Under the pieces are notes generated by a model, which saw nothing but the letters and a program-made list of their open reading frames with translations, was not told the origin of the DNA and ran no database searches. Positions 14,551 through 62,062 of a stretch of DNA of 64,000 nt are shown here, piece by piece (position 1 is the stretch's first letter; every line of letters starts with the position of its first letter). The position numbers were made by a program, and so were the translations under genes. Source of the stretch: Styela clava (taxonomy: Eukaryota); contig NC_135261.1 in the NCBI RefSeq assembly GCF_964204865.1, forward strand, positions 12,276,001-12,340,000, written 5' to 3'.

Positions 14551-17500
14551 TTAATAATGTCGTGACATCATGTAGCACGTGATTACGATCATGTGAGCGG
14601 TAACCAGCATTATTGTGTTCACACTCAGTCTTGAAGCGTGACTCGTTGTAGATTCAGATGAAGACTCGGTAAACATTGATGTTGAATTACTGGGCGTTTC
14701 CATGGTAGATACATTTTTAATAAATGGACCTCCATAACCAAGATCATCCCAAAAGTCACAAATTTCGGCTCTAAATTCATACCTAACCTCACTAGATTGC
14801 GAACGGATGTACATATACGGCCATGGTTGACTTGAACCTGTAAATATCAGGTAATGCGAGTGTTTAATATTATAAAATGGCTAACCTCGAAATATTTGAT
14901 TCATGAAATGGAATTGACTATTTTATTCGAATCTCACAAAATATTAGAATTTTCACATCGCAATTTGCAGTTCCTATAAGTTGACAATGTTCAAACCAAC
15001 AATCGCGTGGGTGGTATAATAGTTAAAGCATCATATGACAATAATTCATGAACTTTCATATAATAAGCGTCTATTTCATTTATGATCACTTAGGCGTAAA
15101 CTGACATAAAGACGGAGAAAAGGTTTACTTTAAGCGATATGTCACATGAAAAACTGTTATATATTTTATTTTTAATAATTGTACTTAGCCAGGATATACC
15201 AATGAGACATGCTAATTATGAAACATATATTAACTACCTTATTATAATTGACACGGATAAGTGATGCGAAAGTTCGCAAATAATATTTTAGTGTAATAAT
15301 CGTGTAACAGAAGGGAAATTTTTTTGTGTCTAATTGACAAATTGGCGATGAGAATCTTGTACGGATAATAGTTAATCATAATACTTACCGTCACCGGTAT
15401 TGTACTTAGGCCATGATGGAAAATTTTCTTCAAAGTTTAACAAACCACTGGACGGGTTTCCTGTTTGAGCGAAGCCAGCCCAATATATGCTGAATTGATT
15501 CTCAACAGATAAGTGATCTTCCGTGTAGGTTTCGAAGCTGAATAATAGATTTAGATAAATAAATATAAATAGGTTTTCAACAAACTTGACCCAACTGATC
15601 GATAACAAATTCAATAAAAAAATGACACAAAGTGATGGCTGATGAATCGTATTATAAGAAGTAACTTTTTTTAGATTAAATTTAAAACCTAACGCACAGT
15701 GTTTTTTCCATTCCTAGGTTTCCTTATTACATACCTAACTTCTTCAACTGTTCTGAAAACAAATGGCACATCAGCTGAATGGTAAGAATAATAACATCCA
15801 GTGGCGTTTCCGCCATTCGCATAAAAGCAACCCAGAAAAAGTACCTTTTCATCAAAAACATAATAATACACGGAAGCAGATGTCGTATTTGCTGCTAATC
15901 TAAAACAATGTAATACAGTAGATAAATATTTGAGATTTACTTAATTATATATATTGGGATATTTTTCGGCGCTCCACAAGTGTGTGTACCAATATGGAGG
16001 TAACTAATTTTGTTCGTCTACTTTACATCAAGTGCGTAAAGGAATTGAAACCTATGTGGGTACATTCACTTGTCTAACATTGACAGTACCCGAACTCGTA
16101 ATAGAACTAAAATACGAAAAATCGGAATCAAATTATGGCCTAACCTTAACCTGGGACACACACTACGGGAGTACCCATTTTACAACGTATTCTCATTGCT
16201 CTAATGATAAAACTAATAAATCATATACTGATGTGAAATAGTAAAGACTTATTTTTCGTCAGCAATGGCTATTGTTTCTTTTATTCGGGCATGACGGAAC
16301 ACCTGGTGAGTATCATGGTTCGTTTCCAAACAATAATCTGTTCTGGGAATTGACGTTCTATTTTTTTTTTATTTTTTTTTTATGTCAAAACTTGTGTCAG
16401 CGACAAATACACTGGTAGGTCATGAACGTTATTTCAAATACTTTCTAAATGTTTTTACAGTGATATATAGTTAGTTACCTTGCCATATGCCTATTTGGAC
16501 ATGTGAATGTGTATTCTGTTGTCTGCTTCCCATAAGTTACTCGATAATCTTCACCTTGATTGGGTGGATATATTTCCATGTATTTGTCAACGATGCTTCT
16601 TGCCATTCCTATATCACCAAATGCGTCAACATTGGCAGCCTGAAACGAATTTTCAAACTTTCTATTACTAATAAAATACAAATTAAATATTATGTTTACA
16701 TAAGGTCTCACTATTTGTTGATCTATTTATGTTGACTAGAACAAAAACATACCTTTAATCAATAACTTACAAAAAATATATTTTCAGTGTAGTTGAATTG
16801 TTTTGGAATGGAAAACATGATGATGTCGTACTCTTCGGCAGTAACACCGATAATCATATCTTTTTCAGAATTCCAATTTCCGCTCCTGTATAACTCCATC
16901 GGCCAATCGGTAAATTCAACCCCATCAATTATAGGTAGATAAGTTTCGGATGTATAAAGCCCAAAACCTTCTTCCTGAGCCGTCGATTCTTGTACCAATT
17001 GTGTTTGATTTATAATATGTTGTGCGGACGAATTGCTGTTAGACGAAGATATAAACAAAAAATATGAATAATGCTATAAATTATATTAGAATAGGAATTA
17101 TCATAGTGGCTCCAGATTTAATTACACTAAAGCAGAAAATAGGATAAAATATAATACATCACATCAAATAGAAATGAAAAATGTATCATGACCTATATAC
17201 TCATGTTGCCAAAATGACAAGCTTACATTAAACAAGCTCTTTCGTCTCCGGTACATCCTAAACTTTGTAATAATCTGTTAGTAATCCTCAGTGACATCTC
17301 CGGTGAAGGATAATAAAATGAATAGGCAGCTGGATTACTTTGTTGAATTGAGTTCGTGTAAAGATTTTTACTGATGGGGGAAAGTGTATGGAACATGACA
17401 GATTGCGCTCCAGCACTGTCTCCAAATATTGTGACCTGAAATGAAAAGAAAAAATTCAAAAACACCACAAAGCATGAAGCAGTATGTAACTTGAAACATT

Positions 17501-19718
17501 CCATTTCTGCAAATAGTTTATCATTTCAACACTTAAAATACTAACGAAACAACAAACCCTGGTTTTATCTCCTCCGAAATTTTCAATATTTTCTTGGACC
17601 CATTCTAAAGCAAGTTGCTGATCTTTCAATCCTTGATTTCCACCTATGCTATTTTCTTCTGCTTGTTGATGCATCAAAAAACCTAGAGGACCTTTGCAAA
17701 CATACGTAACGCTGTTTATACTCATTATACGTAGATAGTACGTAGAAGGGTGAATTTTGCCAAATGAAAACATGCAGTGAATCGTAATTTGATATGAAAT
17801 GTTTGTCGTTCAACATTTGCGAGTGCTTAGATTTACATAGGTTTTTTCTGAACCAAGTACGGACATGATACATTATACATAAACTATTAAAAAGATAATT
17901 TATACCTAAACGGTAATTAATGGTAACAACCACTGTATTTGTGAAATTGGCAAGTTCTCGTCCGTCCGTTCTCGGCTGTGTTCCTGAATTTATTGTAAAA
18001 AATCCTCCATGAATATAGAATAATACAGGAAGACGATCAGATGGAGGTTTAGAAGAATCACTCAAATCCAAAGACGATGGCGTGAACACATTTAAAATTA
18101 AACAGTCTTCTTTCATCTGCAATAATTCACAATACCAAATTTATTATCATTATAAATTGTAGAGCCTTTGTTACAATTATTATAAGGTTAACTATAAAAC
18201 AACTTTTAACTGATTTACCAAGAAAACGATACATACATACAATGCAGTTTGTGTATTGTTAATGGGGGTTTTATAACAATTTTATATTCTCTATATATAT
18301 ATATGCAAGTTATTTTCAATGATGAGCTATATATAACGATATATATTTGTTAGAATCGAAGTTATCATAATTTCACCGCTTACATTTAAAATACATTGTT
18401 CTTCAGTGACAGATTTACAAACATCCTCGTATTGATAGCATTGAAGGAAGTTGTTTGAAGTTCCATTTATATGTTCATGGGGTATTGTAATCTTTTGAGG
18501 CGGCTGAAACCTGAAAATCAGTAATAATATTTATTTACATTGCCTCGGCATAATTTTCAATAATATTGGGGTACTTGTCATTTTATAATTACTTTTAAGT
18601 TTGTTCGTCTTATAAATGTACGATTGAAGATATCAAAACTTTTTCAGTGTTTTTTAATATGTTTGATTTATTGTATTGATTTACTATTTGTTTCTAACCA
18701 AAAAAGCTCGGCAATTAGCGGATCTATCTTTATTGGATAAATAATCACATTTACGATAGAAACATTAAGATGAATATATAGTTTCGGACAATGTGCAATA
18801 GATATTGAGATGAACTTTTGCGCAAACTTATTGTATACTGAAAATACTAACCTTAACTCGCCTATGGGTGGTTGAGCATAAGGAATCTCCCAAAATGCAT
18901 TGGATTCGGCGGTCTTTGCTCCAGAAACTAATCCCGACGAGGTGTTTACTTGAGGGAAATCCAGTGTAACTTCTACAAATAAAGCGATGTATCGAAGTCT
19001 ATTCACGTGTTTTAATAATATTTTGTGCAGTTTCATTTATTCAAGTACTATTATCAATTACAAATCGTTTTTTTTCAAATTTAGATCGACATCGTAACTA
19101 ATATTGGTATATGTCAAACGTAAAACGATTATGTTTCGTTCCATTAATGGAGTTCAACCATTTTTACAGAAACTTATTTTTCTGCACCTTAGGTTGCTTT
19201 GCTTCGAATTTTGTTAAAAAGTTTCGAATACCAAGTTTACAAGCAAAGAACAAGAAATATTTCGATTATTTAACTAACAGTTTAGTTTGCGTGAAACTAA
19301 GTACATTTCCTTGCTCTCTATGCCTTTGCGCAGGTGGATGCGTATTACGCAAGGCTGTATGCGTATTACGCAAGGATGCTGTAGCAACAGTGTAAATGGC
19401 TATTCTATTCAATTCAAGAGTCTTGCTGCACATGAACACAAATACATTTCTGTAACGTTTCGTCTGACCGAGGTCAGAAATATATTGTGTTCGTGTACCG
19501 CACGACTCTTAAATTGAATAGAATTCGATTATTGTTGTTATTTTGTGTTGAAACATACCACTAATTCTTCTCGATGCACGAACAGATTCAATTTTCAATC
19601 GGTTACTTTGTACTTCGCGTTTATATGATTCATACAAATTAGGGCCATTTGGTACATTTAGAGATTCTACAATAACAATCCCATAAAATGCTATGGCAAA
19701 TGATATTTTAGAAACCAT
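14551..19718 (-). CDS. Type-B carboxylesterase (cholinesterase fold), predicted GPI-anchored; copy A (662 aa, 11 exons)
   Basis: Exons 19718-19559, 18972-18852, 18510-18384, 18116-17906, 17691-17558, 17435-17227, 17035-16771, 16639-16479, 15899-15735, 15537-15389, 14837-14551 total 1989 nt with no internal stop. Motifs: [43 protein letters not shown] (Ser), GVTAEE (Glu), YHSAD (His), CDFW; S/T linker plus hydrophobic tail. Confidence 0.93.
15968..16175. mobile_element. ~210-bp non-autonomous element in intron 8 of copy A
   Basis: Imperfect terminal inverted repeats ggcgctccacaagtgtgtgtacca / tgggacacacactacgggagtacc, a subterminal cctaaccttaacc motif and T-rich flanks. Confidence 0.55.
19285..19480 (-). 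repeat. Penelope-pLTR-like short repeat with partial hammerhead-like core (intron 1 of A)
   Basis: Minus strand reads TCTGACC-TC-GGTCAGA-C-GAAACGTTA-CAGAAATGTATTTGTG. The downstream part aligns with 57540-57670. Includes a tandem atgcgtattacgcaagg x2 (19338-19375). Confidence 0.55.
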
Positions 19719-61887: not shown

Positions 61888-62062
61888 ATGGATTTCAGAG
61901 TATTTGTAGGAAGTATATTATTAGGAATTATAATCACTGGTGGTAAAGCAAACAAGGTCACGGAAGGTTTGCGACTGTTTCTTCCCGATATACTTCGCTT
62001 CGCAAAAGTGGAAAGAGGAAAGTTTACATCGGCCGAAGCTTCTGATTTAGAAAGGATGAATG
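61888..62062 (+). CDS. Exon 1 of a fifth carboxylesterase paralog (copy E); remainder outside the window or lost
   Basis: [58 protein letters not shown] followed by G|gtttgt. The exon is 175 nt, as in D. Upstream 61175-61887 and intron to ~62442 align with D. Confidence 0.8.

Follow-up and report, generated by a model that had tools for sequence, protein, structure and literature searches.

The crystal protein of Dictyostelium carries a leader peptide, resembles the acetylcholinesterase (AChE) of Torpedo and is stored as crystals in esterosomes derived from the endoplasmic reticulum, according to the accessible part of PMC2116030. Esterases of this crystal/D2 type range from amoebae to fish. 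The present analysis concerns an array of esterase genes on chromosome 16 of the ascidian Styela clava, in a gap-free stretch of 64,000 nucleotides with no N letters (the window; contig NC_135261.1, G000:C16:12276001-12340000) within a genome of 377 Mb. A preliminary description, made from the sequence letters, had reported an expanding array of predicted glycosylphosphatidylinositol (GPI)-anchored cell-surface esterases, and the observation of the array is confirmed. Its genes belong to an ascidian branch that groups with the crystal/D2 proteins, and their products are predicted to be membrane-anchored.

Gene models were built from splice sites, starting from a six-frame motif scan in which EDCL, HGG, QSNP and STTSHA each occur once per complete copy, in four regions. 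The window holds four complete copies, A to D, and the first exon of a fifth, E (Table 1), so that the count of at least five paralogs and the end coordinate given for the array both stand. All introns are bounded by GT..AG, there are no internal stops, and A, B, C and D have the same ten intron phases (1,2,0,1,0,2,0,2,2,1). Copies B and C are 95% identical as proteins, D is 84-85% identical to either, and A is 60-61% identical to the others. Alignment to eel AChE locates Ser, Glu and His of the catalytic triad in 4/4 copies, sequons number 10, 9, 11 and 13 in A, B, C and D, and the N-terminal hydrophobic stretch, a putative signal peptide, has a 15-residue hydropathy of 1.9-2.4. The preliminary description had also listed intact copies with identical 11-exon phases, a full triad, many N-x-S/T sequons, a Ser/Thr stalk, STTSHA and a terminal hydrophobic stretch, and all of these are seen in A-D.

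The N-terminal extension of about 35 amino acids (aa) that had been assigned to every complete copy holds in part. Exon 1 of B (30913-30742) and of C (43054-42883) has two in-frame splice donors; RefSeq uses the upstream donor for B and C, dropping about 31 aa of the extension, and the downstream donor for D and E. The extension of about 31 aa is supported for A and D-type transcripts only. RefSeq lists the array genes already (XP_039252764.2, XP_039252803.2, XP_077974728-31.1, XP_039252767.2) under the automatic names crystal protein-like, cholinesterase-like and para-nitrobenzyl esterase-like. Models A and D agree with their RefSeq counterparts letter for letter, C has 628 aa in RefSeq with the shorter exon 1, and B and E are each split into two records, E at its premature stop.

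On database records the Pfam family COesterase (PF00135) is matched at 1e-101 to 1e-105, and the profile matches reach 353 and 339 bits against a cut-off of 27, over profile positions 3-515 of 515. Given this full-length match and the GxSxG, Glu and His found in 4/4 copies, the proteins can be classed as type-B carboxylesterases. An AlphaFold model of an allele of A, made with an alignment of 20, has a mean predicted local distance difference test score of 82 and a predicted template modelling score of 0.82, and only the N-terminal extension and the stalk are modelled with low confidence. Foldseek ranks BChE, AChE and CES highest, at 26-30% identity, and the ESM Atlas returned generic carboxylesterase clusters only. 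A query with the same allele found 20 further records at 329 bits or more, the named ones all from Styela, Ciona or Clavelina; in other groups, single-domain proteins scored from 236 bits down. The alignment of the profile search included three non-ascidian rows, which biases the ranking of crystal/D2 proteins; therefore, placement was taken from trees only, one set quickly made with 62 rows under LG+G4 and one carefully made under a mixture model with 30 rows (32 rows omitted).

The ascidian sequences form a clade with support of 100/100 in the 30-row tree, and the quick trees agree. This clade groups with proteins named crystal or D2 (100/98 with 30 rows; 98 by the Shimodaira-Hasegawa-like approximate likelihood-ratio test with 62 rows), which in the trees come from dictyostelids, other protists, molluscs, an annelid, a hemichordate, an echinoderm and fish. 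The cholinesterases, CES and CEL lie across a separate branch, itself supported at 100/98 in the 30-row tree, so that the proposed closeness to crystal/D2-type esterases rather than to AChE is upheld. The ascidian clade may be sister to the crystal/D2 proteins or nested in them, the branch in question having a support of 85/86. Record P0213, which has no tail, stands at the base of the ascidian clade in the 62-row tree. Among named records, the copies on chromosome 16 make up a clade of Styela sequences alone (100/99), with one unnamed record inside it in the 62-row tree, and monophyly of all Styela sequences has a support of 97 in the 62-row tree and is not resolved in the 30-row tree. Since Ciona intestinalis and Clavelina lepadiformis members fall in the clade, the subfamily is ascidian-wide, and only the chromosome-16 expansion appears specific to Styela among the sampled sequences. 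The phylogeny with carboxyl- and cholinesterase families that the preliminary description had proposed thus bears out the crystal/D2 kinship and not the restriction of the stalked, tailed subfamily to one lineage; "lineage-specific" fits the chromosome-16 clade.

One Clavelina lepadiformis member of the clade, P0014/P0421 (XP_076823388.1, CAK8673093.1), is a protein of 1047 aa with one leader and a GPI-like tail, in which EGF-receptor-type L, furin-like and growth-factor-receptor IV domains stand ahead of the esterase. It is present in two separate annotations, and represents either real domain shuffling or a repeated fusion of gene models. A link of the array to the Styela thyroglobulin-like protein was ruled out, as PMC12992692 reports that protein to be made of Tg1 repeats without a cholinesterase-like domain.

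In AChE, functional roles have been assigned to the choline-binding Trp84, to the gorge and to the acyl pocket. Residues were compared by the alignment to eel AChE, which is approximate in the loops. Copies A-D keep Gly118 and Ala201 along with the triad. As previously described, none of the four has an equivalent of Trp84, and the omega loop in which it would lie is shorter, with an extra Cys pair; that pair and QSNP, which had also been pointed out, are marks common to crystal/D2 proteins. The position of Glu199 is taken by Asp in A and by Asn in B, C and D, that of Gly119 by Phe and that of Gly227 by Asn. Equivalents of Tyr121, Tyr130, Trp279, Phe288, Phe290, Phe331, Tyr334 and Tyr442 are lost as well. 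Positions of the gorge and acyl pocket are polar or aliphatic, except for Tyr at 330 in D, and Glu occupies the Phe290 position in 13/13 ascidian rows of the alignment. Of the marks of a cholinesterase (Trp84 with Glu199, an aromatic gorge and acyl pocket, grouping in the tree), none is found. The marks of a neuroligin, loss of a triad residue and a transmembrane helix with a cytoplasmic tail, are not seen either, the triad being complete (neuroligins are not in the tree). Since the triad and oxyanion residues are kept and the choline site and gorge aromatics are lost, the proteins are predicted to be active esterases without a preference for choline. Elsewhere in the genome, the gene L017 on contig C8 is the true cholinesterase, with Trp84 and GESAG kept and a GPI-like tail; L018 on C13 resembles a canonical crystal/D2-type gene, and L016 on C6 carries QSNP.

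The stalk and the GPI-like tail are the clearest difference between the ascidian branch and its crystal/D2 relatives. Tails were scored with a rule of our own, not a trained predictor, which requires a terminal hydrophobic 12-mer scoring 1.5 or more, no more than 10 residues beyond it, and small residues at omega and omega+2, located 18-33 from the end. By this rule 22/23 ascidian-clade sequences have such a tail, A, B, C and D among them, against 1/17 crystal/D2, 3/11 cholinesterase and 1/12 other sequences, so that the GPI-like tail described for the array is a family trait. In A-D, 63-69 residues extend beyond the last Cys motif and hold both the stalk, which is 42-50% Ser/Thr, and the hydrophobic tail. 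The candidate omega Ser lies 29 residues from the end in B, C and D and 30 in A. STTSHA is the local form of TT-S-x-A/G, a clade-wide pattern located 24-33 residues before the end and compatible with an omega site. The hydrophobic stretch is followed by 0-2 basic residues and no cytoplasmic tail.

Expression was assessed with contigs of sequencing runs guessed as RNA, none being recorded as such, and contig depth was not taken as copy number. For A, contigs of run X10 join 10/10 introns and those of X1, from a second study, 9/10 among the rows listed, with 0-2 differences in the exon pieces listed. For D, contigs of X1 splice 9/10 introns precisely at GT..AG and show two other letters at the tenth; the intron joints of D were also sought in the DNA-like run X2, where none was seen. 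The contigs aligned to D differ from it; their source may be alleles of D, E or C. In these RNA-type contigs, A and D-type genes are spliced as modelled. One spliced contig (run X1, record 2, window 52488-53182) joins a C-type exon 6, with 21 differences from D of which those listed match C, to a D-type exon 7 with 3 differences. It is either a mosaic gene of another individual or a chimera of the assembly graph.

Copies B and C arose by direct tandem duplication, and D and E are a second duplicate pair, inverted relative to B/C. All splice sites of E are intact, and an in-frame premature stop lies at codon 244 (exon 5, outside the window). Copy F follows E on the minus strand near 12.353-12.361 Mb. 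A genome search gave at least 18 matches for exon 4 and at least 16 for exon 6, and 15 places, also a lower bound, were matched by both: ten on C16, two on C1 and one each on C9, C17 and C18, among which the best match alone was the basis for assigning the C17 place, the second C1 place and one C16 place. The ten places on C16 comprise six in this array, two at 10.59-10.61 Mb and two at 10.74-10.75 Mb. In G000:C16:10730001-10760000 (L027-L029) two subfamily genes face each other, adjoined by partial duplicates of their last exons (10731716-10734686), and a 3' gene fragment is found near C16 10614350-10615423.

The ratio of nonsynonymous to synonymous divergence (dN/dS) is 0.13-0.36 for all ten pairs of copies, with pairs that include A near saturation, and dS is 0.09-0.10 for B/C and for D/E. 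In six pairs dN/dS is 0.12-0.20 for exons 2-6 and 0.37-0.57 for exons 7-9; this contrast reaches significance in the four BC-versus-DE pairs (p 5e-6 to 0.017), which are not independent and for which the grouping was post hoc. No region with dN/dS above 1, and hence no positive selection, was seen pairwise and by exon group. The word "expanding" overstates the case, since the array has lost a copy too, through the premature stop in E, and none of the dN/dS values exceeds 1.

Exon 6 of A, which encodes the catalytic Ser and QSNP, has been homogenised with that of D/E by gene conversion, in either direction, judging from several comparisons. At the nucleotide level it is 94% identical to D/E and 89% identical to B/C, whereas the ten remaining exons range over 45-77%. 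Synonymous differences between A and D/E number 7/63 in exon 6 and 158/318 elsewhere (p=3.5e-9), and the introns flanking exon 6 of A do not match those of D/E. In the exon-6 tree A is sister to D/E (84/91), whereas in the exon-4 tree A lies outside B-E. In the database allele of A, exon 6 encodes an identical protein sequence, so the signal is not the error of one assembly. Simple hyper-conservation of exon 6 was ruled out by its identity of 64-69% to copies F, G and H, close to the 60-69% of exon 4. Exons 2 and 5 also look homogenised among B-E, each with 1 informative BC/DE site, and in exon 7 further sites are common to A and D/E. Since other patches are homogenised, the idea that conversion is special to the catalytic exon is weakened, and conversion need not be aimed at the active site. 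It is proposed that the array evolves by birth and death, in which conversion and purifying selection would hold the core and the pocket-lining exons would drift faster.

The explanation preferred here is that the array encodes ascidian crystal/D2-type esterases, GPI-anchored, that digest neutral esters of food and microbes at gut or pharynx epithelia. The signal peptide would direct import into the endoplasmic reticulum, GPI would be transferred to the Ser of the TT-S-H-A motif, and the enzyme would be displayed on a glycosylated Ser/Thr stalk of 35-40 residues. Catalysis through a Ser-His-Glu acyl-enzyme, with a Gly-Gly-Phe oxyanion loop, would then hydrolyse esters on contact at an epithelium that faces seawater. 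Taken as a whole chain, this explanation has slightly better than an even chance of being right; that the products are active, anchored, non-choline esterases is highly probable. Substrate class and tissue are the least secure part, as they are drawn by analogy with apical GPI hydrolases and from a link of the crystal protein to phagocytosis. Stalked GPI ecto-hydrolases such as alkaline phosphatase, membrane dipeptidase and AChE-H are established on apical epithelia, and the Dictyostelium crystal protein (gp70) is reportedly linked to phagocytosis. Several observations weigh against the preferred explanation. The Phe at Gly119 could impair catalysis. Among the six runs guessed as RNA, X6 and X9 give only scraps of D-type exons and X7 no exonic cover of A, which is uninformative either way, and transcripts are not assignable to B specifically. 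For exons 7-9, dN/dS stays below 1, and the post hoc contrast falls short of significance in B/C (p=0.08) and in D/E (p=0.35). The tail of A is the weakest (hydropathy 2.23, ending in RHY and carrying His), its database allele has Asp in the tail and a hydropathy of 1.57, and one Clavelina clade member has no tail. Our tail rule also passes three cholinesterases and one mollusc CES, and does not separate a GPI signal from a transmembrane helix at the tail end. These tails, and the helix that AlphaFold draws there, would also suit active enzymes without GPI, in which the tail is a plain membrane helix or undergoes processing that releases the enzyme by shedding or secretion, as with its crystal/D2 relatives; with the small-residue motif 24-33 from the end kept across the clade, and no cytoplasmic segment, such an arrangement is unlikely.

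If the same anchored esterases instead remodelled the animal's own surface, by removing esters from polymers of the tunic or mucus net or from surface lipids, this would explain why the anchored branch is seen in ascidians only, the named stalked and tailed members being all ascidian. A weak match to BD-FAE (feruloyl/acetyl-xylan esterase) above cut-off points the same way, but BD-FAE is listed for nearly every carboxylesterase and so is unspecific, and seven clade members are unnamed records, which leaves self-remodelling a modest chance. Insect carboxylesterase arrays serve detoxification-type roles, and an array growing under pressure from algal toxins or bacterial ester or lactone signals would accord with the young duplicates B/C and D/E and the faster change in pocket-lining exons. 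However, dN/dS nowhere exceeds 1, one young copy is already broken and the classical detoxifying CES belong to another clade, so that detoxification or signal quenching is quite improbable. The array could in part be an assembly artefact, with alleles placed in tandem: B/C (95% of aa) and D/E (94%) are close, and the cluster members examined from an older RefSeq set include A-, C-, E-, F-, G- and H-like records and none that is B- or D-like. Yet alleles are closer than paralogs (A 641/660, C 612/628, E 319/323) and no N gaps occur across 126 kb. Both an artefact and non-catalytic adhesion molecules like neuroligin, which the intact triad in 4/4 copies opposes, are very improbable. A bolder proposal, which has a modest chance, is that an undescribed ascidian-only subfamily arose when ancient secreted esterases gained a stalk and GPI to become a diversifying surface repertoire suited to tunicate life, for tunic or mucus-net remodelling or contact digestion of filtered microbes, in which conversion swaps the Ser exon and yields mosaics that segregate between individuals. 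In short, the interpretation offered in the preliminary description is partly supported, and the roles it named in detoxification, signal degradation and surface remodelling stay hypothetical.

Table 1. Features of the esterase array, in window positions
Feature	Position	Strand	Details
Copy A	19718-14551	-	11 exons, 662 aa, GDSAG, triad S258/E389/H503; RefSeq XP_039252764.2
Copy A, exons 1-6	19718-19559, 18972-18852, 18510-18384, 18116-17906, 17691-17558, 17435-17227	-	
Copy A, exons 7-11	17035-16771, 16639-16479, 15899-15735, 15537-15389, 14837-14551	-	
Exon 6 of A, gene-conversion tract shared with D/E	17227..17435	-	begins around the Ser codon (~17417) and reaches close to the end of the exon
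B+C direct tandem duplication	22531..46880		two units of ~12.1-12.7 kb, 85-94% identical including introns and flanks; self-blastn, repeat families
Copy B	30913-23942	-	11 exons, 661 aa with long exon 1, GNSAG, open frame, triad S262/E395/H508
Copy C	43054-36674	-	11 exons, 659 aa with long exon 1, triad S262/E393/H506
Copy D	48895-55946	+	11 exons, 660 aa, triad S263/E394/H507; inverted versus A-C; RefSeq XP_077974730.1
Copy D, exons 1-6	48895-49069, 49587-49707, 50230-50356, 50666-50876, 51738-51871, 52492-52700	+	
Copy D, exons 7-11	53009-53273, 53662-53819, 54307-54471, 54632-54780, 55678-55946	+	
C-terminus of D: STTSHA, spacer, hydrophobic end	55842..55946	+	GPI-signal-like; motif scan and own rule
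Copy E, exon 1	61888..62062	+	tandem duplicate of D; gene runs past the window to G000:C16:12351500

Outside the array, window positions 530-1359 (minus strand) and about 7.5 kb before the window (L030) hold exons of a gene for a coiled-coil protein, with weak Pfam matches to Paralemmin and Filament that are below cut-off. These exons fall within another tandem duplication, about 7.5 kb in size and 85-93% identical. Short, high-copy interspersed repeats with very deep contig pile-ups are found at 15968-16183, 19400-19478, 20620-20750 and 31209-31273; the element at 19407-19478 occurs five times in the window, with one copy within intron 1 of A. Between A and B, 22156-22364 is a perfect two-copy tandem repeat of 104 bases.

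The literature searched holds no paper on this ascidian subfamily, the survey of Johnson and Moore 2012, which may include Ciona members, being outside that search, and no work on an animal member of the crystal/D2 type. PMC12992692 cites that survey as a source on how such genes were duplicated and rearranged in invertebrate deuterostomes, the main text of PMC10094616 does not mention esterase, lipase, crystal or hydrolase, and PMC3464141 has no bearing here. There is nothing unusual in tandem carboxylesterase arrays, GPI-anchored esterases or conversion between neighbours taken singly, which limits the surprise. The genes were already annotated singly, and the modest novelty is an anchored ascidian branch of a known family. 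An expressed, repeatedly duplicated and, by prediction, membrane-anchored branch offers a handle on a little-studied group and on how filter feeders handle esters at surfaces. The misleading automatic name cholinesterase-like is also corrected, which matters for biomarker work on this invasive species.

Compared with known systems, the RefSeq models describe the same genes, under names that, where seen, state no anchor, clade or conversion. The CES of vertebrates and molluscs and CEL share the PF00135 fold and Ser-acid-His with the array, but fall on the other side of the 100/98 branch. CES and CEL also form tandem arrays, and CEL has a tail rich in Ser, Thr and Pro; the CEL records sampled have no hydrophobic tail. 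AChE and BChE, including the GPI-anchored AChE-H, are alike in fold and triad at about 28-30% identity, and the cholinesterases of Styela and Clavelina have GPI-like tails too. They differ in that the array lacks Trp84, Glu199, the acyl-pocket Phe and the peripheral-site Trp, has Phe for Gly119 and belongs to a separate clade, and the Styela genome has its own cholinesterase on another contig. The closest relatives are the crystal/D2 proteins (Heterostelium D2, Cavenderia, Glandiceps, Anneissia, Pecten, Haliotis and cyprinids), the probable sister group, joined at 100/98; the Dictyostelium discoideum crystal protein itself is outside the sequence set. In both groups the omega loop is short, carries an extra Cys pair and lacks Trp84; [QE]S[NS]P follows the nucleophile strand, a Cys pair precedes the catalytic His, and the N-terminus has a putative signal peptide. 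These marks are a reading of the present alignment and not a curated definition. The crystal/D2 proteins end just past the last CxFWD helix (16/17 fail the tail rule), whereas the ascidian branch adds a stalk, a GPI-like tail and often an N-terminal extension of 30-50 aa.

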